DNA of 64,000 bases from Candidatus Kapaibacterium sp. Its GTDB lineage: Bacteria > Bacteroidota > Ignavibacteria > Kapaibacteriales > UBA2268. Below the pieces are notes generated by a model. It searched no databases. It was not told the origin of the DNA and worked only from the letters and a program-made list of their open reading frames with translations. Location of the stretch: positions 263,750 through 327,749 of the forward strand of contig JAMLHE010000002.1 of NCBI GenBank assembly GCA_023957315.1, read 5' to 3'. Position numbers and translations under genes: made by a program. Shown here piece after piece: positions 2,698 through 50,716 of this stretch (positions are counted from its first letter, which is position 1; every line of letters starts with the position of its first letter).

Positions 2698-4187
2698 ATG
2701 TCAGAACAACCAAAAAGAAAACATTGGGTCAATTGGGCATTATTTGGTGCCACAGTTGTTGTCGTATTCCTTGTAGGAATTTTCACTGCTCAAATCATGG
2801 AACGCCGTGCGGAAAAAGTAGCACGATTCCAAATTATTCACGAATTACCGGAATACGAGCCTCGTAACGAGGTTTGGGGCGAAAACTTCCCCAGACAATG
2901 GGAAACTTATCGCGAAACTTTGGACACAAATTTCACAAGTGCTCACGGTGGCTCATCAAAAATTGATTATCTCGAAGAATTCCCCGAACTCGTGATTCTG
3001 TGGGCTGGTTATGCCTTTTCAAAAGACTATAACCAAGGACAAGGTCATGCGAATGCTATTAATAATATCCGTAAGACTTTGCGAACAGGCGGTGTTGAAG
3101 ATTCTCCATTGCCTTCGACTTGTTGGACTTGCAAAAGTACCGACGTGCCGAGAGTCATGGCAGAAATCGGTGTTAAAGAATATTACGATAAAAAATGGAT
3201 TGAAGTTGGGCATGAATTTGTCAATCCAATTGGTTGCCAAGATTGCCACGACCCGAAAACAATGAGTTTGCGAATCACTAGACCCGCTTTGATTGAAGCA
3301 TTTGAACGTCAAGGCAAAGATATTAAGGAATTTTCGCATCAAGATATGCGCTCGCTTGTTTGCGCTCAATGCCACGTTGAATATTATTTTAAAAAACCGG
3401 GCAATTATCTCACTTTCCCATGGGACAAAGGTTTTTCGGCTGACGATATGGAAGCCTATTTCGACGAAATAGATTTTAGCGATTGGACTCATAAACTGAG
3501 TCGCGCCCCTATGCTCAAAGCACAGCACCCGGATTACGAATTATTCATGACCGGTGTTCATGCCGAAAGAGGCGTGTCATGCTCGGATTGCCATATGCCA
3601 TACAAAATGGAAGGCGGCGTTAAATTCACAGACCACCATTTAAGCAGCCCACTCAGAAACGTTGCGGCTTCGTGCCAAGTTTGTCACCGCGAAAGCGAAG
3701 CGCAGCTGATTAAAGATGTGACCTCGCGCCAAGATAAAGTATTGGAACTCAGACGTTTGGCTGAAAAGTCACTCGCAGCTGCTCATATCGAAGCTAAAAG
3801 CATCGTGGGATGCAGGTGCTACGAAGCTTAAAATGGCGCCGGTGCTCAAACTTATCCGCCACGCTCAATGGAGATGAAGTTGGGTTGCTGCTGCTAATGG
3901 CGTGGGATTCCACTCACCCGTTTGAAGCTCTCAGAGTGCTTGGCACTTCCATCCAAGCTGAACAAGCGCGCGTGCTCAAAACGCTCTTGTTCTTGTAAGA
4001 TTAAGTGTGCGCTTCTATTCCGATGCCCGATATTTCAGCAAAAGAATTGGCTCAAAAATATATCGGACTTGATATTGACGCATTGAAAAAGGATAAAATC
4101 AAGCTCTTGGAAACAGTTGTCAAAGAGTGGGATAAAGAAGCTTTGAAAAGACAAGGTACTTTGATTGATTATAAATTGAACAAATAA
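2698..4187 (+). pseudogene. nrfA: cytochrome c552 nitrite reductase NrfA; 5' 1.1 kb intact, 3' end disrupted by 2 frameshifts and 3 in-frame stops
   Basis: CWTCK active-site haem motif plus four CxxCH (CQDCH, CAQCH, CSDCH, CQVCH) in frame 1. Homology to the NrfA C-terminus (WDAGAT..IRHAQWRWD..EALRVLGTS..IPDIS..) continues through frames 2 and 3 to 4187. The annotated ORF stops at 3831. Confidence 0.7.
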
Positions 4188-4250: not shown

Positions 4251-5456
4251 ATGAAAAAATTTACTTTATTATTTTTATTGATTATTTTTCCTTATATCAT
4301 GAGTGCTCAAGATTGGGGAATCAGATTTAACGGATTTGTCAAAACTGATGCGATGTTTGACACGCGCCAGAATGTAACTGCCCGCGAAGGACATTTTCTC
4401 CTTTTTCCAATGGATGTAGATGAAGTTGAAGGCGGCGATGTCAATGAGACAATGAATTTCAACATGTTGTCCATCCAATCACGTATTACAGGCAAAATCA
4501 CTGCACCTGACTTCCTTGGAGCAAAAACTACAGGTATGATTGAAGGTGCATTTTTTGGGCATACTAATTCAGATATTAACGGTTTTAGATTGCGCCATGC
4601 AACTTTGAATTTGGATTGGGGTACATCTGAACTGTTGATTGGGCAATATTGGACGCCACTTTTTATTGATGAAGCCTTTGCCAAATCTATTTCGTTCAAT
4701 ACCGGAACACCGTTTCAGCCATTTGCTCGCAATCCTCAAATCCGCTACACATTCAAAGCCGATAAATTCCACGTAAACGTAGCTGCTTACTCGGAACGCG
4801 ATTTTGCATCAACTGGTCCTGACGGCGAAACGTCAACTTATTTGCGTAATGCGGTTCTCCCTGTTCTGAATTTTGGCTTGAAATACAATACCGGGAATAT
4901 GCTTTTTGCAGCAAATGCAAATTACAAATCCATCCGCCCACGATTGTTAACCGAAAAGAATCATATTGACGAAAACAAAGTTAATGCAATGACTTTCAAT
5001 GGTGCGATTAAGTATTACGAAGAGGATTTCTTCGTAACATTGCAGGGTTTATACGGTCAAAACACTTCGGCATTAACGATGCTTGGCGGCTATGCTGTAA
5101 CTGCGATTGACGAGAGCAACGGCATGTGGGAATACACTCCTTTGAACACTTTTTCCGGTTTTATTGATATGGAATACGGTAAAGTTTGGAAAATCGGCTT
5201 TTTGGGAGGCTATACAATGAATCTCGGTGCTGACAAAGATATTGTCGGCAATACCTATGGTCGCGGTGCAAATATTGATAATGTCCTCCGCATTTCACCA
5301 AGGCTTTCATATCGCACCGGTATGACACAATTCTCCACTGAATTTGAAGTTACTCAAGCTGCTTACGGAACAAGAGCTACTGTAAAAGGGGTTAACGAAA
5401 ACACTCACAATGTAATGAACATTCGCGTACTTTTAGCGGCAATATTATTCTTCTAA
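4251..5456 (+). CDS. outer-membrane beta-barrel protein (porin-like), signal peptide
   Basis: Signal peptide MKKFTLLFLLIIFPYIMSAQ; alternating amphipathic beta-strand character; C-terminal aromatic residue; downstream of nrfHA. Confidence 0.55.
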   Translation: MKKFTLLFLLIIFPYIMSAQDWGIRFNGFVKTDAMFDTRQNVTAREGHFLLFPMDVDEVEGGDVNETMNFNMLSIQSRITGKITAPDFLGAKTTGMIEGAFFGHTNSDINGFRLRHATLNLDWGTSELLIGQYWTPLFIDEAFAKSISFNTGTPFQPFARNPQIRYTFKADKFHVNVAAYSERDFASTGPDGETSTYLRNAVLPVLNFGLKYNTGNMLFAANANYKSIRPRLLTEKNHIDENKVNAMTFNGAIKYYEEDFFVTLQGLYGQNTSALTMLGGYAVTAIDESNGMWEYTPLNTFSGFIDMEYGKVWKIGFLGGYTMNLGADKDIVGNTYGRGANIDNVLRISPRLSYRTGMTQFSTEFEVTQAAYGTRATVKGVNENTHNVMNIRVLLAAILFF

Positions 5457-11509: not shown

Positions 11510-12925
11510 TTAAAAGTTAGATGACTCACGCGCACCTATGAATTTTTGATACAAAAGCAATCCTATTATGCAAAATACACCTATTCCGCTGAAAAGCAAC
11601 CACAATTCTGCAGTATGTGCATGTGCTGAAACTTGATCTTTCGTGATTCCTGCACCTTCGGCTATTTCTATTAATTTAGGAATTTTAATATCATCGCTTA
11701 TATTAGCACTAGGCACACTATTACGAACGAATGCAATCATCGGATTGTCAACTAACTTAACGTATAACCATGCACCTAAATAGCCACCGACGAATGAACC
11801 GAAGAATCCATACAAAAATCCAAATCCCATATAAGTAGCTTTTTTATCTTTGGGAGCAATCAGACCCAAATACGATATATATTTAGGATGTGCGGTCATT
11901 TCGCCGATTGAAAACAAGATTATACCGGCTAAGAAGACCCAAATATTATTGCTGAAAGCCAATATTGCCATACCAACAGTTCCCATCGAAATCCCTACAA
12001 TTAAGGTGGGAAGAGCCTTTGTATTTTTAACTATTGATGAAACTAACAGTTGCAACACGATAATCGTAAAAGCATTCACAACGGTAACGTGCTCTACATC
12101 AAATTTCCAATCCAATCCCGTAACGGAATGTACGAAGTTATTCAGAGCCGTAGCGTCAACAAATTGTTGGACGTACCACAAGACTGAATCAAACATTTGG
12201 AAGTATAAAATCCAAAACCATGAGTAGATAAAGATGAAAAGCATAAAGCGCCAGTCCATGAAAACTAAGCCGATTTTCTTTCCAATATCGCCGAAAATTG
12301 CAAATATGGAATTATCCGAATCGTCAATTTTTTCTCTTTCGGGCTCTTTATACAAGAACAATGTTGGTATAAGCATTAATGAAGTTACAATTGCTGCCAT
12401 AATCAACACATAAGACCAATCCATTGATTTGAGCCAGGGTACAACTACTAATGGAAAAATAAAAGCACCAAGATTGATTGACCAATAAAAAATGCCAAAT
12501 CCAAGGGCGCTATTGCCTTCGTCTGTGACTTTTGCAATTGTACCCGAAATAATCGGTTTAAAAGTACCGGCGCCGAAAGCCATTATGATTAAAAATACAA
12601 ATACTGCAAGATAATCAGTTACCTGTGCAGTGAGATAATATCCGATACCAAGCAGTGTGAATGCCACCATCAAAGTTTTACGATAGCCCAATCTGTCGGC
12701 GATTGCACCCGATAAAATCGGCAAGAAGTAAAGCAAGGGTTGAATTGTACTTTTAATCGTTCCAACTTCGGTTTTGGAGAAACCGAGCATATCAGTCAAA
12801 TATACTGATAAAATACTCATAACGCCGTAATAGGCGCCTCGCTCGAAAAATTCAAATACTATAACTACCCAATACGTGGGGGGGAAATCCCGAAATGAAG
12901 TCTTCTTTTTTAATTCTGAATTCAT
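11510..12925 (-). CDS. POT/PTR2 family proton-dependent di/tripeptide transporter (MFS)
   Basis: FEFFERGAYYGVMSILSVYLT (ExxERFxYYG POT signature), ~12-14 TM. Confidence 0.8.
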   Translation of the reverse strand: MNSELKKKTSFRDFPPTYWVVIVFEFFERGAYYGVMSILSVYLTDMLGFSKTEVGTIKSTIQPLLYFLPILSGAIADRLGYRKTLMVAFTLLGIGYYLTAQVTDYLAVFVFLIIMAFGAGTFKPIISGTIAKVTDEGNSALGFGIFYWSINLGAFIFPLVVVPWLKSMDWSYVLIMAAIVTSLMLIPTLFLYKEPEREKIDDSDNSIFAIFGDIGKKIGLVFMDWRFMLFIFIYSWFWILYFQMFDSVLWYVQQFVDATALNNFVHSVTGLDWKFDVEHVTVVNAFTIIVLQLLVSSIVKNTKALPTLIVGISMGTVGMAILAFSNNIWVFLAGIILFSIGEMTAHPKYISYLGLIAPKDKKATYMGFGFLYGFFGSFVGGYLGAWLYVKLVDNPMIAFVRNSVPSANISDDIKIPKLIEIAEGAGITKDQVSAHAHTAELWLLFSGIGVFCIIGLLLYQKFIGARESSNF

Positions 12926-25483: not shown

Positions 25484-25558
25484 TCGGGGTGGAGGGATTC
25501 GAACCCCCGGCCCCCTGGTCCCAAACCAGGTGCGCTAACCGGACTGCGCTACACCCCG
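25484..25558 (-). tRNA. tRNA-Pro (anticodon TGG)
   Basis: Minus-strand read CGGGGTG-TA-GCGCAGTCCGGTTAGCGC-A-CCTGG-TTTGGGA-CCAGG-GGGCC-GGGGGTTCGAATCCCTC-CACCCCG-A: 7-bp acceptor stem, anticodon loop TT-TGG-GA, GTTCGAATC T-loop. Confidence 0.9.
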
Positions 25559-36590: not shown

Positions 36591-38207
36591 TCACAACTTC
36601 ACAAACATCCGCGTCCGGCTGCCGATACGGACGTAATACACACCACGAGAGAGATGCGAAATATCAACTCTCAAATTCCCGCTCCCTGAGCCTGTCGAAG
36701 GGTGAGCGGGCGGGGTGAGGTTTCTTACGCATTCACCAAGCGTATTGAAAATGTGAATTTCAGCACCTTCATCAACCCTACGGTTAACCGTAGGGTTGAT
36801 GGTGTGGGAACTGATTTCAATATATTCCGTTGCGGGATTGGGGTGGATTATCGTGCTGATTTGCACTGCTTCGTTGATGCTTGTGGGTTTCGTGCAGATG
36901 CTGCTTGTCCTGTGAATGTTGTTCTGGAACATTGTCCAGTCGGGACCTTGCCCGGTTCCTGCTGAAATTGCGTATGCTCTGCCGTAATTACTGTGCCAAT
37001 CGGGATATTCGACAAAGCCACCAATTATGAAAACATCGAGTATTCCGTCGCCGTCAAAATCCGCTACTACCGGGGCATGGTCTATCGAAAACTCTTTGCC
37101 GATATGGTCAGCAAGGTCAAGAGTCCAAATGACTGAAGCGTCAATGCCCCTAAGTGCGATTACTTGTCCGCCGGTAGTGCCGAAAATGACATCCGGCAAT
37201 CCGTCATTGTCTATATCTGATAGCGCTGCTCCACGAAATGATTGTTCGATATTGGGAATATCATATTCCCAAAGTACTGAGCCGTCGCCTTTTAGGGCAT
37301 AGTAGCGGTAAAAGCTCGAAAAGACTAATTCGCAATTTCCATCGCCGTCCAAATCGCCCACAACAACAGGCGAACCGATATATGAAATCGCCTTGAAACG
37401 CCATTTCAATGTGCCGTCTGCGGAATTGAGTGCAAAGAGATTGCCGGCATAATCGCCTATTACTAAATCATCTATTCCATCGCTGTCGAGGTCAACAACT
37501 GCGGTTCCGTGATAAACAACATCTTCCAAGTCGAATGTCCAGATTAATTGCTGGTCGTAGCCACGATAAGCATAAACTTTGCTTTGGTTGTCAGTTGTAT
37601 CAAAATTCCACGAGGCTACTACGAAATCTAATTTTCCGTCGCCGTCAAGGTCAACAATTGTCGGAGCAGTCTGAATCCATGAGTTAGTGTCCACTTTTAA
37701 GTCCCACTTTTTGATGCCATCGCTTGCGTTCATACATATTACATATCCACCGAATTGTCCGTGCAAAATTTCCAATTTTCCATCGCCATCAATATCTGCT
37801 ATTGTAGGCGGTGAATCGCTTCCACGTGTGAGAGTTTGCCATTTTACTGCTCCTGTTGCTCCGTCGAAACAATATGTGTAGGGATTGCACGAACTTGCGA
37901 CGATAACGTCGAGCAAGCCATCGCCGTCCACGTCGTAAATGAGTGGCGCCGTGTCGTTGCATCCCTCCTGCCAACCGGATGTATTGTACTTCCAGAGCAA
38001 TGTGCCATCGTCTAAATTGAGGGCATAAACCATGCTATCGTTGCGATAACAGCCGAAAACCACTTCGTATTTTCCGTCATGGTCAATGTCTGCGAGTGCG
38101 GACTGACCGTACGAATTATCGTTCAGGTCGTACCACCACTTAATTTCAGGTACTTGTGCAACACATTGGATTGCAACCAATGTAAAAATAAGAATCAAAG
38201 TTTTCAT
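36591..38207 (-). CDS. FG-GAP/VCBS beta-propeller repeat protein with T9SS C-terminal sorting domain
   Basis: Eight D-x-D-x-D-G-x-x-D repeats (DIDHDGKYEVVFG, VDGDGLLDVIV, DIDGDGKLEIL, DLDGDGKLDFVV ...); C-terminal IFNTLGECV...ISHLSRGVYYVRIGSRTRMFVKL. Confidence 0.75.
   Translation of the reverse strand: MKTLILIFTLVAIQCVAQVPEIKWWYDLNDNSYGQSALADIDHDGKYEVVFGCYRNDSMVYALNLDDGTLLWKYNTSGWQEGCNDTAPLIYDVDGDGLLDVIVASSCNPYTYCFDGATGAVKWQTLTRGSDSPPTIADIDGDGKLEILHGQFGGYVICMNASDGIKKWDLKVDTNSWIQTAPTIVDLDGDGKLDFVVASWNFDTTDNQSKVYAYRGYDQQLIWTFDLEDVVYHGTAVVDLDSDGIDDLVIGDYAGNLFALNSADGTLKWRFKAISYIGSPVVVGDLDGDGNCELVFSSFYRYYALKGDGSVLWEYDIPNIEQSFRGAALSDIDNDGLPDVIFGTTGGQVIALRGIDASVIWTLDLADHIGKEFSIDHAPVVADFDGDGILDVFIIGGFVEYPDWHSNYGRAYAISAGTGQGPDWTMFQNNIHRTSSICTKPTSINEAVQISTIIHPNPATEYIEISSHTINPTVNRRVDEGAEIHIFNTLGECVRNLTPPAHPSTGSGSGNLRVDISHLSRGVYYVRIGSRTRMFVKL
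36770..36801. repeat. perfect 32-bp palindrome inside the T9SS-CTD coding sequence (encodes INPTVNRRVD)
   Basis: catcaaccctacggttaaccgtagggttgatg; centre GTTAAC. Confidence 0.85.
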
Positions 38208-40278: not shown

Positions 40279-40695
40279 TTATTCGCTTGGCATTGCGCTC
40301 AAATCCGTAAACATCACTTCCCACTGATGCCCGTCCGGGTCGGCAAAGCTATCGTAATACATCCAATCATGGTCTGCAGATTCACGATAACGAGTGCCAC
40401 CATTTTCAAGAGCCAATCTGGTTATTTCATCTACTTCATCGCGGCTTTCGACTTCGATTGCAAATAATACCTGCGAAGTGCTTCCGTCCGCAATCGGGCG
40501 ATTACAAAAAGTTTGGAAATATTCGTGCGAAATCATCATCGAGTACATTGTCGGGTCGCTCAAAATCAGACACAAAGCCTTATCATCGCTGAATTGCTCG
40601 TTGAACGAAAAGCCCAATTTTGACCAAAACTCTCTTGTCTTGGCAAGGTCTCTCACCGGAAGATTTATATATATAGATTTTACATTCATAATCAA
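40279..40695 (-). CDS. VOC/glyoxalase family protein
   Basis: 138-aa glyoxalase/bleomycin-resistance fold sequence. Confidence 0.55.
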   Translation of the reverse strand: MIMNVKSIYINLPVRDLAKTREFWSKLGFSFNEQFSDDKALCLILSDPTMYSMMISHEYFQTFCNRPIADGSTSQVLFAIEVESRDEVDEITRLALENGGTRYRESADHDWMYYDSFADPDGHQWEVMFTDLSAMPSE

Positions 40696-40860
40696 ACGCT
40701 AAAAATAAATTAAAAAAGTTCCCAAATGATAAACGGACAACAGTTTTTTTTAGTTAGTTTTTCTTATTCCCCCTCTTTCAAGAGGGTGTTACGAAATATT
40801 TTTAGGGCGTGCTAATTCTATCTAGCCGCAAAGGACACAAAGAGTTGAAATTGGTAAGAA

Positions 40861-40939
40861 GACAAACATAGCCCACGAATTTTGATGGTGGGTTAAGAAG
40901 GAAACCTCACCCCAACCTCTCCGAAGGAGAGGGAGAAAG
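40861..40939. repeat. composite hairpin-module repeat, copy B (rcX-rcY)
   Basis: gacaaacatagcccac..ggtggg + ggaaacctcaccccaacctctccgaaggagagggagaaag = reverse complements of modules X and Y of copy A. Confidence 0.75.
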
Positions 40940-41063
40940 AAAAATTGAAAAAAATAAAAAATTTGAAATTTTATTTGGAAATGACAAAAGTTTTTTATTT
41001 TGGGATATTGAATTTTACATTTTTGTAAATTGTTGTTAAATAAGGAGTAATTTATAATGAGTA

Positions 41064-42749
41064 ATGTATTCGCCCCCCCCCCTCAAAGCCTCATGGCTAT
41101 TGACAATTGTATTATCCTTACTATACTTTACTAATGTAACTGTAATGATTGCACAGAACGAAAAAGAGCTGTTTCCTGAGCAATTGCTTAGTTCATGTTG
41201 CGAAGAAATCGATATTGACTACTATGTGACGGAAGATTGTTGTATTCAAATTGATATTGACAATCCAAGTTGTGAAGACGCGAAAATTTCAATTTTGTCA
41301 AAAGCACCAAATTCACCGTTGTGGAATTTAAGATATGTAGAATCCGCACCTGCTACAAGTGTCAGTTATAAACTCTGCCCGTCTAATTATTCTACCTCAA
41401 TGAGGTTTAGAATTATAATTCAACATGCAAATGGAGCACCGCATTGCGACACAAGCTTAATGGTTGAAGGAGTAAACCAATTTACTTATGATGTTGACAT
41501 CAGTCACTGTTGCAACTGTGAAGGTAGTAGTTCATGGATAACCTCATACAAAAGTTCAGATACACTTTGTCCGGACTCATGTTCTTTTGGAGTGTATTTA
41601 AATATACCGGATTCTATTACTTGCTTTAAATACTATGGTACATGGATTGCAGAGTCAGGCAATGCGGCAAAAGATATTGATTCAGTTTCTAATATTATTA
41701 AGTGTGTTGGACCAGGAGAAGAATCAAGCATACGAATTAGATTGCTAACAAGTATGGAAGAATATCATTCTGCTTCAGGTTGTTATTTGAGTGCACAAAT
41801 CTCTTGTGATACTACGACATACTTTTGGATGCCTGACATTGATTTAACTTGTTGGGATGATTGTGAAGAAGCGGAAGTAAGAAAAGATACTTTATCTGAT
41901 TTTCATGTGCCTGGATGCTTTAATTGCCCAGTCACTGTTTCTTATGTAACAAGAAAATGCAATGACAAGCAAGAGTTACAAATTACAGGCTTCTGGACTC
42001 ACAATACTTGGAATTGTAGAAATTGCCCGGACGAAATGCTTTACGATGCTGCTTTGAAAGAAATAATTTATAAAAATAAAATGGAATTTGAACCTACAGA
42101 AGTCAATGATTGTGATACGACTTGGCGTGTTGGAATAAGCAGTTGCTTTGGTACATACATATATACAAATTGGATAATGAAATGGGAAGAAGCAGGACCA
42201 TCCGGCCCCGGTGGTTGGGTTTCAGTACTCGATACAATAGTTGTCAGAGTTGTATGCGATACTATTGATTGTTGCTTTAAGCAACTAACTGTTTGTAGAT
42301 ATGATGACCATATTACGATTGCAGATGGAGCATCAAGCGACACAAATATCATCTGTTTACCACCTCTTCAATTCCCAATGCTTGAACCACCAGTATTTTG
42401 CGGACCTTCGTGTGATTGGCTTGATAGTTTGGAAGGTTACTACTACCCCCATCTGAGTAGTAAAGAATCTTATGGAGCGAAATTCTTCCTATACGAAGAA
42501 ATAAAGGTTAATTCTTATATACAGAATGGAAAATTTAATCTTGAAATTGAATCACCAAACTCCTCAGAAATAAAATTTACTGTATATGATTATTTAGGTA
42601 ATATTTTTATCCAAAGTCCTATAAGAATTCAAGCTGGCACAACAAGATATAACATTGATTTAACACCATTAAATACAGGAACATATATATATACGATAGT
42701 CTTTGATGAGAATCTGATAAAAACAGACAAGTTTATTTATATTAAATAA
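41064..42749 (+). CDS. novel cysteine-rich (~40 Cys) secreted protein with T9SS-like C-terminal domain; poly-C tract at codons 4-7
   Basis: Signal-peptide-like N-terminus; CC/CxxC-rich body (SSCCEEIDIDYYVTEDCCIQIDIDNPSCED, HCCNCEG...); C-terminus KFTVYDYLGNIF...TGTYIYTIVFDENLIKTDKFIYIK resembles T9SS CTD; AT-rich. Confidence 0.6.
   Translation: MYSPPPLKASWLLTIVLSLLYFTNVTVMIAQNEKELFPEQLLSSCCEEIDIDYYVTEDCCIQIDIDNPSCEDAKISILSKAPNSPLWNLRYVESAPATSVSYKLCPSNYSTSMRFRIIIQHANGAPHCDTSLMVEGVNQFTYDVDISHCCNCEGSSSWITSYKSSDTLCPDSCSFGVYLNIPDSITCFKYYGTWIAESGNAAKDIDSVSNIIKCVGPGEESSIRIRLLTSMEEYHSASGCYLSAQISCDTTTYFWMPDIDLTCWDDCEEAEVRKDTLSDFHVPGCFNCPVTVSYVTRKCNDKQELQITGFWTHNTWNCRNCPDEMLYDAALKEIIYKNKMEFEPTEVNDCDTTWRVGISSCFGTYIYTNWIMKWEEAGPSGPGGWVSVLDTIVVRVVCDTIDCCFKQLTVCRYDDHITIADGASSDTNIICLPPLQFPMLEPPVFCGPSCDWLDSLEGYYYPHLSSKESYGAKFFLYEEIKVNSYIQNGKFNLEIESPNSSEIKFTVYDYLGNIFIQSPIRIQAGTTRYNIDLTPLNTGTYIYTIVFDENLIKTDKFIYIK
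41073..41082 (+). repeat. C10 homopolymeric tract (candidate slipped-strand phase-variation switch)
   Basis: cgCCCCCCCCCCtc directly after two out-of-frame ATGs (41057 with AAGGAG SD at 41042-41047; 41064). Confidence 0.8.
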
Positions 42750-42810
42750 AAACAATGTCATACTCCTACTGAAAATGTAGGAGTATGACTCTTTTTCTTT
42801 AGGAGTTAAT

Positions 42811-44238
42811 ATGATTTCGTATATTTTAAATATAATATGGCTTGTCCTAATATTGAATTCAATTTTGTATTCTCAAACCGAATGGGAGCAAGTGCATCCT
42901 TCTACTTATGGTACAGCTGCAAAATTTAATACTGTAAGATGTTTAGACAGTTTAAATTGTGTGTGTTTGGTATGGAATGGTACAGTATGTTGCGAAGGTG
43001 TTCTAAAATCCACAGATGGTGGCAAAACATGGAGTGAATTATATTACGAAAAAATTACATATGATGAAGAAGGTAATTTGATTTGGCCACAACCCAGATA
43101 CATGAATTCAGTTTCATATAAAACAGTAGAAAATATCCTAATTTCACGTAGCCATGGGATGATTTTCAGGAGTAAAAATGGCGGTGAATCCTTTGATACC
43201 GTTCGAGTTGTAGTACCAGTCGATGGAAAATATCCAAGCAGTTCAGAATTAAAAAATATCCACATGTTCAGTAATTCAAAAGGGGCTGTTGTATCAACAC
43301 CAAATATTTATATTACTAATGATTATTGGGACTCCTTTGAAATGATTGAAATATCACATCCCGATGTACCTGATGATTATATAATTAAAGCATTAGATAT
43401 TCATTTTTTTGATAAAGATAAATTTACAATTTATTTCTTTGCCAATAAAGAAATTTCACCTAATAATTTCCATTTTTTATTCAAAGGATTCCTGACAACT
43501 ACGGATAATGGCAAAACATGGCATATGCAAGATATTTTAAATGATTTTCAGGCAAGAAATGTTTACATTAATTCATTGTTTTCTCTAAATCCTATGATTG
43601 GATGGGCTGTCGGTTATGTTGTTTATGATACAGACAATGGGGGTAGATTAAGACACGGACTTGTTTATAAAACTTATAACGGAGGTTATACATGGGATTT
43701 AATTCATGTAGATGAAACTGAACCAAAATTTGGTTTATGGGACATTGCTTTTTATGATGAACTAAACGGAATAACAGTAGGTAAATACGGGAAGATTTTA
43801 CGTACAACAGACGGAGGTTATAAATGGTTCTCCGATGTTCAATTGAGTGCCGAACAAGAATCTTCTCGACTCACTCAGGAAATTACTTTTGCCGGGCAAA
43901 ATCCAATTGTATGTGCTTGGCAAGATGGTATTGTTCGTGGCACATACACACCATCTTCTGTAAAAGAAAGCGCAGAAGCAGGGAGCGGGCTGTCCGTCTT
44001 TCCCAATCCGGCAAGCGAATATATAGAAATAACCATAGCTATCAACCCTACGGTTAACCGTGGAGTTGATGAAATTGCTGACATCAAAATCTTCAATACT
44101 CTGGGTGAATGTGTTGAAGAAATCCCCCTTAATCCCCCTTTGCCAAAGAGGGAAACAAGAATTGATGTTTCGCATCTTCCTCGTGGTGTGTATTATGTTC
44201 GTATTGGCAGCCGGACGCAGATGTTTGTGAAGATGTGA
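42811..44238 (+). CDS. BNR/Asp-box repeat (Ycf48/sortilin-like beta-propeller) protein with T9SS C-terminal sorting domain
   Basis: Asp-box repeats STDGGKTW, SKNGGESF, TTDNGKTW, KTYNGGYTW, RTTDGGYKW; C-terminal VFPNPASEYIEI...IFNTLGECV...VSHLPRGVYYVRIGSRTQMFVKM. Confidence 0.7.
   Translation: MISYILNIIWLVLILNSILYSQTEWEQVHPSTYGTAAKFNTVRCLDSLNCVCLVWNGTVCCEGVLKSTDGGKTWSELYYEKITYDEEGNLIWPQPRYMNSVSYKTVENILISRSHGMIFRSKNGGESFDTVRVVVPVDGKYPSSSELKNIHMFSNSKGAVVSTPNIYITNDYWDSFEMIEISHPDVPDDYIIKALDIHFFDKDKFTIYFFANKEISPNNFHFLFKGFLTTTDNGKTWHMQDILNDFQARNVYINSLFSLNPMIGWAVGYVVYDTDNGGRLRHGLVYKTYNGGYTWDLIHVDETEPKFGLWDIAFYDELNGITVGKYGKILRTTDGGYKWFSDVQLSAEQESSRLTQEITFAGQNPIVCAWQDGIVRGTYTPSSVKESAEAGSGLSVFPNPASEYIEITIAINPTVNRGVDEIADIKIFNTLGECVEEIPLNPPLPKRETRIDVSHLPRGVYYVRIGSRTQMFVKM
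44041..44070. repeat. imperfect copy of the 30-bp palindrome inside paralogous CTD coding sequence (encodes INPTVNRGVD)
   Basis: atcaaccctacggttaaccgtggagttgat. Confidence 0.8.
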
Positions 44239-48050: not shown

Positions 48051-50450
48051 TTACATCCCAAAAACGAAGTTCACCCAATAATTTCTTTCGGCGGCAGGGA
48101 AAAATTCCGGTCCGATGGCGCCCGATGCATAGTACAAATTCGTCAGATTGTTCACCACGGCATGAATTTTCATTTCTTCGAAAAATGGCAATTGCTTGAA
48201 AGTGTAAATCAGGCTTGCATCCAGCACTGTATATGCATCAAAGTTGTTATCTGCGTAATATCCACCTCCGAGATGACTTCTGATTCGCTCGTCAGTGGTC
48301 AGCATATCTCCGAAATTGTCCGTTTTATAAGTGCCGACATGCTTTAGGGCTACACCGAAGTACAAATCTTTGGTGCTGATGCCTACTCGTAAATTCGCCA
48401 TAAAATCGGGGAAACCGGCAATATTATTATCCGCAAGCGATACGAGATGACCCTGGCGAGTTGAGAAATTGTATTCGATAATTTTATTTTGGCTATAAGT
48501 TGCGTTGCCACTGATTCTCAAATCGAATAAATCCGAAACGTTGAAGATTTTCGTAGCCTGAAGCTCAATCCCATAGTGGCGGGTTTTTGGTGCATTGCCA
48601 TCAATCGGCGAGCCGAACAAATCGGTTTGCCCGCTTTTGACAAGCTCATCAGCGTATTCCATCCAATAGAATCCCGCATTTACGCTGAAATCTGTAGTCA
48701 AGTATCCCCAACCAAGCTCGAGATTGAGCATCTTTTCGGGTTTGACGAGTGCTTTGCTGAAGTCGTAAAGCCGAGTGCCATCTGAAGTAGTATCAAATGC
48801 AAATAGAGGTTTAGCACCCCAAAAAGCATCACTTGCAGCATAGAGATTCTTCATCCGCGGCTCGCGAGAAGTGTGTGCAAGTGAAATGTATGTGTTCATT
48901 TCATCAGTGACGTTGTAGTTAACGCCGATTCGCGGATTGAAGAAAACGTAATTAACATCAAAAAGTCTTTCGCCATTGCCCACTATAGTGCCGTCAGTAG
49001 TCGAATATTCAGTGAAAACATTGCCTGCTTTTTCGTTTTCGATTCCATAAGATTGATAAACGATTTGTGCATCCAAATTCAGTGCTATTCTTTCGGTCAG
49101 AAATAATTTCTCATTTGCAAATACGGAAAAGATATTGCGAATTCCATCATAATTGTAAAATTTGAAACCGGGGTCGAAATTCTCGGGCAAATTTTCTGCA
49201 AAATTAATCTTACCCCAATGATTGGAGCGGTGCATTCTTATTTCCATTCCACTTGTGAAAATGCCGTTTCCGTGATTCCAAACCAGACGCGGAATCCATC
49301 CGCCGTATTTATTGCCAACAAAAGCGCGTATTATCGGATTTGTCGGGTCATTGGCATCAGGATAGCCATTTTGCTCATTCAAACGGAATGACGAGGCATC
49401 TGTCCAGCCTGTGCCGTCATAATCAAAATATCCTTGACCTGTTTTGAAAAAAAGTGCTGATTTCAGCTCAAGATTCTCGGAAATGTGCCAATCATTCAGC
49501 AATTCAATCTGTGGTTGCGAAAATTGCTCTACTTCTTGATTTCGGCGAACTGTCACCCAATCTACTTCCGTTCCGTTTTCGCGGTCGTAAGACCAATAAT
49601 TGTAATTAGCTCTGCGTTTGTCGGCATCTTTTACATATGCTTTGGGCAAGCCCGTATAAGCCAAGCCGTCATCTTGCGAACCTGTAATAAAATTTATTTG
49701 CGTTGTCAGATTATCGTCAAATCGTGCGACGCCGAATTGGTAACTGTTCAAAGTTGCCCAAGATTGGTCGCGGTAACCGAATGAATTAATGCGATTTATA
49801 CGAGTATAAAAAGCATATTTATTATCAATTAATCCACTCGAAGCCGAAAGCCCGAATTTCGAGCCATATTGCCCGGCATTATATAGCGATGAGGCGCTTT
49901 CCTGAAAGCCAATTCCGGTGCTGAATTCGACAGACCTTTCACGAGCGAAATTCTTGGTGGTCATGATAATTGAACCACCAATTGCAGCAGCACCATAACT
50001 GCCAATTCCGGCTCCGCGTTGGACTTGGATGCTTTCGAGCCCCGAAGCCAAATCAGTCATGTTAATCCAATAGAAATTGTGGTCTTCGGGGTCGTTCTGA
50101 GGAATGCCATTAATGACAATAGAAATTCGTCGCTGGTCGAATCCGCGAAGTGTAAGATTGGTATAGCCGATAAAATTTCCACTTTCGGAGTATGCCAAAA
50201 TTGACGGCGTCTCGCTCAGGATTTTCGGCAAATCGTTTACTGTGTGGCGCTGGGCAATTTCCGAAACAGTGATTTCAGAAAAGGGTACAGGTGATTCTCG
50301 CTCTTGGGCGCGAGATGTGGTAACGGTTAGACTCGGTATCTTATATACACGAGTGGAATCTACGTTCAACTCTTCGGAATGAACGGTGAAAGCACCAATA
50401 AAAATCAGTGCAAATGCGATTAAGAAAATATTTCTCATGGAAAACTCCAA
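48051..50450 (-). CDS. TonB-dependent outer-membrane receptor (probable thiamine/thiamine-precursor transporter)
   Basis: Signal peptide, plug domain, 22-strand barrel, C-terminal ...NFVFGM; TPP riboswitch in 5' leader. Confidence 0.8.
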   Translation of the reverse strand: MEFSMRNIFLIAFALIFIGAFTVHSEELNVDSTRVYKIPSLTVTTSRAQERESPVPFSEITVSEIAQRHTVNDLPKILSETPSILAYSESGNFIGYTNLTLRGFDQRRISIVINGIPQNDPEDHNFYWINMTDLASGLESIQVQRGAGIGSYGAAAIGGSIIMTTKNFARERSVEFSTGIGFQESASSLYNAGQYGSKFGLSASSGLIDNKYAFYTRINRINSFGYRDQSWATLNSYQFGVARFDDNLTTQINFITGSQDDGLAYTGLPKAYVKDADKRRANYNYWSYDRENGTEVDWVTVRRNQEVEQFSQPQIELLNDWHISENLELKSALFFKTGQGYFDYDGTGWTDASSFRLNEQNGYPDANDPTNPIIRAFVGNKYGGWIPRLVWNHGNGIFTSGMEIRMHRSNHWGKINFAENLPENFDPGFKFYNYDGIRNIFSVFANEKLFLTERIALNLDAQIVYQSYGIENEKAGNVFTEYSTTDGTIVGNGERLFDVNYVFFNPRIGVNYNVTDEMNTYISLAHTSREPRMKNLYAASDAFWGAKPLFAFDTTSDGTRLYDFSKALVKPEKMLNLELGWGYLTTDFSVNAGFYWMEYADELVKSGQTDLFGSPIDGNAPKTRHYGIELQATKIFNVSDLFDLRISGNATYSQNKIIEYNFSTRQGHLVSLADNNIAGFPDFMANLRVGISTKDLYFGVALKHVGTYKTDNFGDMLTTDERIRSHLGGGYYADNNFDAYTVLDASLIYTFKQLPFFEEMKIHAVVNNLTNLYYASGAIGPEFFPAAERNYWVNFVFGM

Positions 50451-50497: not shown

Positions 50498-50598
50498 GGG
50501 CTGTCCTTGCGGCAACGCGTTTCCCTCCGCCGGTATTACCCGGATCAGGTTCAAGGAGACTCTCTCAGCCATACCTATTTTGGTATAGCACCTCCAAC
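50498..50598 (-). promoter_or_regulatory. TPP (THI-box) riboswitch
   Basis: Minus-strand RNA ..GGUGCUAUACC..GCUGAGAG..CCUUGAACCUGAUCCGGGUAAUACCGGCGGAGGGAAACG.. matches TPP aptamer consensus (GGUGC / CUGAGA / ACCUGAUCyGGnUAAUrCCrGCGnAGGGA). Confidence 0.85.
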
Positions 50599-50716
50599 GG
50601 TCTTTAATTCTTTTGCCCAAACGAAGCAAAAATGAATTTATTGTTAATATCGAATTCTAACTCAAACTACGCAAATGTCGCATTGTACGTTAATAATAAT
50701 TTACAAATAGCAAATA

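Follow-up and report, generated by a model that had tools for sequence, protein, structure and literature searches.

A candidate poly-C switch with two start codons in a gene for a type IX-sorted cysteine-rich protein of Candidatus Kapaibacterium

Known repeat-based switches and the Kapaibacterium locus

Slipped-strand contingency loci are textbook features of host-adapted pathogens such as Neisseria, Haemophilus, Campylobacter and Helicobacter; to our knowledge, they have rarely been documented in free-living, uncultured lineages. In Neisseria pilC and in Campylobacter jejuni, a G/C homopolymer of approximately 8-13 nucleotides (nt) in the 5' coding region turns surface-structure genes ON and OFF by frameshifting, and the pilC homopolymer lies in the signal-peptide region. 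The genomes of Neisseria and C. jejuni hold dozens of such tracts, and C. jejuni is devoid of MutS/MutL mismatch repair. Phase variation in Bacteroidota-related bacteria is usually ascribed to invertible promoters. Here, we analyzed 64,000 nt of DNA (“the window”) from Candidatus Kapaibacterium sp. (GCA_023957315.1, contig JAMLHE010000002.1, positions 263,750 to 327,749), in which a run of ten C residues (C10) lies at the 5' end of a gene for a cysteine-rich protein carrying a sorting domain of the type IX secretion system (T9SS); the run is preceded by two start codons that do not share a frame (ATG1 and ATG2). We consider it quite probable that this tract acts as a slipped-strand contingency locus, which would place a T9SS-secreted, cysteine-rich beta-sandwich surface protein in a strong, a weak or an off state.

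The lic2A and lic1A genes of Haemophilus influenzae, as outlined in PMC4235727 (citing Dixon et al. 2007), carry a 5' repeat after start codons in different frames, and the repeat number sets strong, weak or off expression. Like these genes, the Kapaibacterium gene has a non-triplet repeat at the 5' end of its open reading frame (ORF), and the two start codons that precede this repeat are in different frames. However, the repeat is a mononucleotide C run and not the tetranucleotide CAAT of lic2A, the product is a predicted T9SS-secreted structural protein and not a lipopolysaccharide glycosyltransferase or choline kinase, and the host belongs to the uncultured environmental Kapabacteria, whereas H. 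influenzae is a human commensal or pathogen; differential start use is a prediction here. Many simple sequence repeats (SSRs) of Neisseria are flanked by alternative ATGs according to PMC5084427, and the SSRs of C. jejuni are covered in PMC8437040. The tract described here resembles that of pilC and the poly-G/C genes of C. jejuni, as a homopolymer again occupies the 5' part of the gene or the part that encodes the signal peptide. It differs in being the single tract in 64 kb, and in that loci of Neisseria and C. jejuni generally have one ON frame, whereas two are proposed here.

Poly-C tracts of Bordetella pertussis (fim promoters, bvgS) vary in length between close strains and alter expression (PMC1891110). 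The Kapaibacterium run likewise differs in length between close relatives, but the B. pertussis tracts mostly alter promoter spacing or inactivate a regulator, while the tract here is translational and lies within the cargo gene. Capsule and surface loci of Bacteroides are switched ON and OFF stochastically by invertible promoters (PMC3090145); these belong to the same broad lineage and also concern surface or secreted targets, yet they depend on inversion by a site-specific recombinase, and neither inverted repeats nor an invertase is involved here. That homopolymeric tracts at the 5' end of genes play a general role in prokaryotes was proposed earlier (PMC2831843). Full-text literature searches returned no paper joining Kapabacteria with phase variation, and none joining T9SS or type IX secretion with homopolymeric phase variation.

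A preceding interpretation made from the letters alone (hereafter, the sequence-only reading) had located a Shine-Dalgarno (SD)-like AAGGAG motif, both ATG codons and the C10 tract, and all of these coordinates were correct when re-read from the sequence (Table 1). It was equally right that the ATG1 frame stops at 25 codons with C10 and that the 561-amino-acid (561-aa) ORF begins at ATG2, and its description of the product as a secreted, cysteine-rich T9SS cargo protein agrees with the signal-peptide-like N-terminus and the T9SS C-terminal domain. The bases TATTCG separate ATG2 from the tract, and TC directly follows it; in the 561-aa frame, the ten C residues fill codons 4-6 and extend by one base into codon 7. 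An Rfam search at the locus gave no match, and a sigma-70 promoter scan at the locus performed no better than on shuffled sequence.

The sequence-only reading had further argued that ATG1 is well placed with respect to the SD-like motif and ATG2 poorly, which proved valid for this genome. The motif GGAG occurs at positions -18 to -5 of 9 out of 49 starts in the window, compared to 1.04 expected from random positions (about ninefold enrichment), with spacers of 5-14 nt to the start codon (10 nt for sdhA and 9 nt for sdhB). The spacer of 9 nt to ATG1 falls within this range, whereas the spacer to ATG2 would be 16 nt and thus beyond it. The motif is kept as AAGGAG or ATGGAG in all tract-bearing alleles.

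The length of the C10 tract is beyond chance. It is the sole C or G run of at least 8 nt in the window, where the runner-up is a G7 (at 12878), and under independent bases (39% G+C) approximately 0.004 C runs of at least 10 nt are expected. CCC accounts for 24.6% of the proline codons in the ORFs of the window, and only one of 19 other Pro-Pro dipeptides is encoded by CCCCCC. Across 162 kb, comprising the window and fetched DNA mostly from related genomes, C or G runs of at least 8 nt were found at this site alone.

Table 1. Coordinates of the features at the poly-C locus (positions within the window)
Feature	Positions	Strand	Remark
Conserved promoter / 5' leader	40960-41056	+	From comparison with L008 and B-type cassettes
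SD-like AAGGAG	41042-41047	+	Read off the sequence; spacer to ATG1 9 nt
ATG1	41057-41059	+	SD-served start; off-frame with respect to the gene body in the window allele
Dead-end ORF from ATG1 at C10	41057-41134	+	25 codons, MSNVFAPPPQSLMAIDNCIILTILY, then stop TAA at 41132-41134
ATG2	41064-41066	+	7 nt 3' of ATG1, frame +1; in frame with the body in the window allele
Cysteine-rich T9SS cargo gene read from ATG2	41064-42749	+	561 aa
Signal-peptide-like N-terminus MYSPPPLKASWLLTIVLSLLYFTNVTVMIAQ	41064-41156	+	Judged by inspection and structure model
C10 homopolymer, proposed hypermutable tract	41073-41082	+	
T9SS C-terminal sorting domain	42525-42734	+	Residues 488-557
Terminator-like 13-bp hairpin and T-run	42757-42789	+	Just 3' of the stop codon
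BNR/Sortilin-like T9SS cargo gene	42811-44238	+	Conserved downstream partner; Pfam matches

Tract length and reading frame among relatives

Eight tract-bearing sequences were obtained from public assemblies, and the frames were computed for each (Table 2). A scan of genome contigs gave two loci, both already known, and a metagenome scan gave one new locus. The gene occurs in two settings: the A-type cassette (SLC13 permease - glyoxalase / gene - BNR gene / sdhB) and the B-type cassette (UvrD / gene - BNR gene / ABC-F), which is paralogous or orthologous to the former.

Table 2. Tract length and frame state of the eight tract-bearing sequences
Sequence	Source and relationship	Tract	State
Window	A-type cassette	C10	ATG2 in frame
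L008	JGI 3300078498, A-type, about 91% nt identity to the window, same synteny	C9	ATG1 in frame
L007	Ga0208244_100010, B-type	C11 + A	ATG2 in frame
L011	GCA_014879555.1, 99.5% identical to L007	C9 + A	Neither ATG in frame
L009, L010	Two Logan runs, 97.9% identical to L007	C9 + A	Neither ATG in frame
L001	More distant B-type allele	C9	ATG1 in frame
L002	More distant B-type allele	C13	ATG1 in frame

The proposal that the tract is a slipped-strand contingency locus is supported by this comparison of assemblies. Tract length at the same site, which the sequence-only reading had suggested comparing across related genomes, is variable (C9, C10, C11 and C13) and not invariant. Moreover, its prediction that a C9 tract would fuse ATG1 to the whole protein corresponds to a natural allele, as the product of L008 (P0009) begins MSNVFAPPLKASW. 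The window and L008 are approximately 91% identical across 5.5 kb with the same neighbours, and despite this overall divergence of about 9%, positions 40960-41140 are 100% identical save for one C. Within the gene, the two differ by the tract and one 3-nt in-frame indel, and by no further indel.

The lengths C9 and C11 occur among assemblies that are 99.5% and 97.9% identical, with the tract as the only indel: L007 and L009 show 157 substitutions in 7622 alignment columns, and their sole indel is the 2-nt difference in the tract; none of the eight A/T runs of 7-9 nt within these columns contains an indel. All three frame states were found, with ATG1, ATG2 or neither in frame. The OFF alleles (products P0010 and P0011) remain open through the natural stop, and a second lesion is absent. 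In all eight sequences, ATG2 lies in frame +1 of ATG1, at a distance of 7 nt (10 nt in L002), and the tract is uninterrupted from C9 to C13 in alleles that are only 67-83% identical in DNA (18-33% divergent). In GCA_018335795.1, a fourth assembly of the L007 strain, L004/L006 is 100% identical to L007, and the contig begins at the first base 3' of the tract (L007 position 4021), as would be expected if tract length were heterogeneous or coverage dropped at this site.

At the level of sequence, the locus carries every mark of an SSR contingency locus: an uninterrupted non-triplet repeat (a G/C run of about 8 nt or more) in the 5' part of the ORF, repeat numbers that differ between close genomes with conserved flanks (C10/C9 and C11/C9), toggling of the frame in an intact gene of which ON and OFF alleles both exist, and purity of the tract over divergence. 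It also has the anatomy of lic2A-type multi-start phase variation, with at least two initiation codons in different frames 5' of the repeat in all eight sequences.

Proposed switch and competing explanations

Given the anatomy of the locus, the polymorphism of the tract and the conservation of both the tract and the ATG codons, a translational contingency locus is the simplest account. Gain or loss of C residues by slipped-strand mispairing during replication, in a tract situated in the signal-peptide-coding 5' end of the gene, would shift the gene body among three frames. With the body behind ATG1 (C9 or C12 in the window allele), translation would be strong owing to the good SD motif; with the body behind ATG2 (C10 or C13), it would be weak, as no usable SD motif serves this start. 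In addition, ribosomes loaded at ATG1 would read the 25-codon dead-end ORF across ATG2 and further hinder initiation there. With the body behind neither start (C8 or C11), no secreted protein would be made and the gene would be OFF. The window allele would thus be in the weak ATG2 state. We infer that cells of one population switch often and reversibly, that ATG1 and ATG2 differ in yield, and that the cells would benefit from varying a surface protein, for instance by evading phages or predators.

Several points weigh against this interpretation. Each length is a metagenome assembly consensus and not a count from reads, and homopolymers of 9-13 nt are where sequencing and assembly are most error-prone. 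The alleles amount to approximately seven independent observations (three with ATG1, two with ATG2 and two to three OFF), a number at which selection and drift are indistinguishable. GGAG is present at only about 18% of the starts in the window, so that initiation is often SD-independent; since about 80% of starts lack the motif, SD-independent initiation may also occur at ATG2, which may then be as good a start as ATG1. Furthermore, there is a single such tract in 64 kb and no sign of a genome-wide repertoire of contingency loci. The switch appears not to be universal in the family: P0006, the second copy in the same metagenome-assembled genome (MAG), is apparently without a long tract as read from its protein, and a 49%-identical homologue (L003/L005) has a different N-terminus and no tract.

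An error in sequencing or assembly of the homopolymer would be one competing explanation. In that case, the true tract of the window would be C9, ATG1 the sole start, and the frame problem an artefact of the MAG consensus. C10 and C9 differ by one base in a 10-nt homopolymer, the closest relative L008 has C9 in otherwise identical flanks, the NCBI annotation found no sensible start and began at Met28, and the assembly that breaks at the tract indicates that the site is hard to assemble. Nevertheless, we regard such an error as unlikely. The arrangement with ATG2 in frame recurs independently in L007, the step from C11 to C9 between 99.5%-identical assemblies comprises two bases, and two separate runs (L009 and L010) agree on C9. 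The window assembly is also not generally indel-prone: coding density is 86%, genes are otherwise intact without other frameshift-like breaks, and the comparison with L008 revealed only the two in-gene differences described above. Finally, the conservation of ATG2 in frame +1 in all alleles would be unexplained if this codon were never used.

Alternatively, the tract could be a mutational hot spot without switch function, namely a proline-coding remnant whose lengths become slowly fixed in lineages, with pseudogenes where the body is out of frame and constitutive initiation at ATG2 in the window. This agrees with the fact that the states seen are the consensus of separate populations only, that the gene is accessory (absent beside the SLC13 permease in the CROMO genome described below) and that some homologues have no tract. 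However, we judge it similarly improbable, because the OFF alleles are without a second lesion and near-identical to the ON allele save for a recombined patch of 240 nt, the tract has stayed pure C at synonymous positions over 18-33% DNA divergence, the two-ATG arrangement is conserved, and no part of the locus is better conserved than the promoter and 5' end. A functional requirement for polyproline was considered separately and rejected: the number of prolines ranges from two to four, out-of-frame alleles exist, and the purity is at the nucleotide level.

Recoding, in which a +1 ribosomal shift on CCC-C or stuttering of RNA polymerase on the C run yields full-length protein from C10, draws on CCC-C quadruplets being classic +1 shift-prone sites for tRNA-Pro and on ATG1 with its strong SD motif being off by exactly +1 in the window and L007, but it is very improbable as the explanation, as no stimulatory element was identified, the in-frame ATG2 makes it needless, and programmed frameshifting as the main mechanism was rejected because the alleles need shifts of 0 (L008, L001, L002), +1 (window, L007) or -1 (L009, L010, L011). 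At some level, recoding on the C run may still take place.

If the tract is a slipped-strand switch, as we think probable, then all three of its frame states have been caught in public metagenome assemblies of near-identical populations. The locus would offer a concrete and testable case for stochastic surface variation in environmental Kapabacteria and on T9SS cargo. It also suggests that “frameshifts” at homopolymers in MAGs should not automatically be written off as errors or pseudogenes.

Gene product, cassettes and neighbourhood

The 561-aa ORF is 100% identical to NCBI MCO5250408.1, a “T9SS type A sorting domain-containing protein” of a Candidatus Kapabacteria MAG (contig of 391,974 bp), which is annotated from Met28 (MIAQNEKE..., window position 41145) and thereby loses the putative signal peptide. 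Because NCBI starts the gene at Met28, an exact-protein look-up with the full 561-aa ORF gave no match. The same internal start at the Met of MIAQ is present in MBE2188082.1 and in IMG and Logan gene calls (the equivalents in L007, L009 and L011), and it was called in OFF-state alleles and in alleles with ATG2 in frame (window, L007) alike. NCBI and IMG thus place the start of this gene family wrongly, at Met28, so that the putative signal peptide is left out.

Judged by inspection and from the structure model, the N-terminus resembles a signal peptide, with a lysine, a hydrophobic helix (residues 7-35) and an AQ-type site. The AlphaFold model, built with 26 homologues, has a mean predicted local distance difference test score of 76 and shows the helix at residues 7-35 followed by a chain of beta-sandwich domains, for which Foldseek matched strings of FN3/Ig domains and adhesin repeats. 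In Pfam, only the C-terminal Por_Secre_tail was detected, with 25.5 bits against a cut-off of 27; the C-terminal sorting domain of T9SS cargo (Por_Secre_tail / type A C-terminal domain) is present, and at least three genes in the window bear a T9SS C-terminal domain. The family comprises 134 cluster representatives at E <=1e-3 among 1.84 billion, has approximately 25 conserved cysteines and matches no known function. Most of its distant members begin with a plain MKK... signal peptide and have no proline run. One distant homologue (P0084) begins MKNVLTPKRISQAWLL, equivalent to the ATG1 reading, which makes the latter the ancestral one.

The 5' part of the locus is far better conserved than the remainder. 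Between A- and B-type cassettes, identity is 82-90% over positions 40904-41500, which hold the promoter, the switch and roughly the first 100 codons with the invariant SSCCEEIDIDYYVTEDCCIQIDIDNPSCEDAKISI; the leader by itself (40960-41056) lies in the same range, and identity falls to only 50-60% in the gene body (41500-42749). The gene combines a conserved 5' module with a fast-diverging body. The L007 and L009 genes differ by 31 substitutions, 29 of which fall in one patch of about 240 nt (L009 ~3308-3545; L007 ~4387-4624; alignment columns 550-787). L009 agrees with the L001 allele at 22 of the 31 differing sites, and the remaining gene is near-identical to L007. This patch looks like a recombination mosaic between alleles, as in variable surface-protein genes.

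Two paralogous cassettes, each with a cysteine-rich and a BNR gene, are apparently part of the same MAG submission. The pair in the window corresponds to MCO5250408 and MCO5250409, whose accessions belong to a series that climbs steadily along the window from MCO5250374 to MCO5250421. The other pair, MCO5250489 and MCO5250490, is located on another contig (339,093 bp). Its cysteine-rich protein, P0006, begins MKTMYPPSTRAFG, as would be expected if the tract were short or had decayed and the two Met codons shared a frame.

A wider generalization can be offered only tentatively. In Kapabacteria of subsurface or groundwater communities, a conserved three-state poly-C switch may control disulfide-rich T9SS surface proteins of a family private to them, with two paralogous cassettes per genome that share a conserved promoter, switch and first domain and carry mosaic, fast-diverging bodies. 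This would generate surface variation in free-living uncultured bacteria, plausibly for evasion of phages or predators, and it would be the first case in which an SSR contingency locus is linked to T9SS cargo.

The terminator-like hairpin and T-run after the stop codon suggest that the switched gene is monocistronic and that the switch is confined to the cysteine-rich gene alone. Downstream, the BNR gene adjoins the cysteine-rich gene in L001, L002, L004, L007, L008 and L009; in L012, a locus reached via its BNR gene, an unrelated HmuY-like gene takes the upstream position, and this locus is uninformative. A comparison of window positions 40279-44238 with L013 (7768-10000) showed that the region 3' of the conserved SLC13 permease varies: the window and L008 have the glyoxalase and the A-type cassette, and in the CROMO genome a multihaem-cytochrome-like gene that bears a T9SS tail is followed by DUF4249 and a TonB-dependent receptor. 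As this genome has no A-type cassette beside the permease, the cassette is accessory.

The genome in question, GCA_018335795.1 (L004, L006 and L013), is labelled “Desulfobulbaceae bacterium CROMO_A_116” and itself carries a cassette. Its Rrf2 regulator, SLC13 permease, SdhA and murein transglycosylase are at least 90% identical to those of Kapabacteria MAGs. This MAG is probably mislabelled taxonomically, or its bin is mixed.

Two unrelated T9SS cargo genes, encoding an FG-GAP propeller (36591-38207, minus strand) and the BNR/Sortilin-like protein, end in nearly the same C-terminal domain of about 80 codons (…NPTVNR.VDEG.EI.IFNTLGECV…GVYYVRIGSRT.MFVK.). BLAST cross-matches of these domains between loci reach 81-97%, which suggests domain shuffling or gene conversion. 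The C-terminal domain of the switched gene is different and divergent.

The intergenic region 5' of the conserved promoter (40700-40955) contains many short G+C hairpins (CCCTCTTTCAAGAGGG and CCTCTCCGAAGGAGAGG) and, unlike the perfectly conserved next 180 nt, shows numerous indels of 5-58 nt compared to L008. Elsewhere in the window, a thiamine pyrophosphate riboswitch (50505-50605, minus strand, 68.6 bits) lies upstream of a 799-aa ORF (48051-50450), and a tRNA gene is located at 25484-25558 (minus strand).

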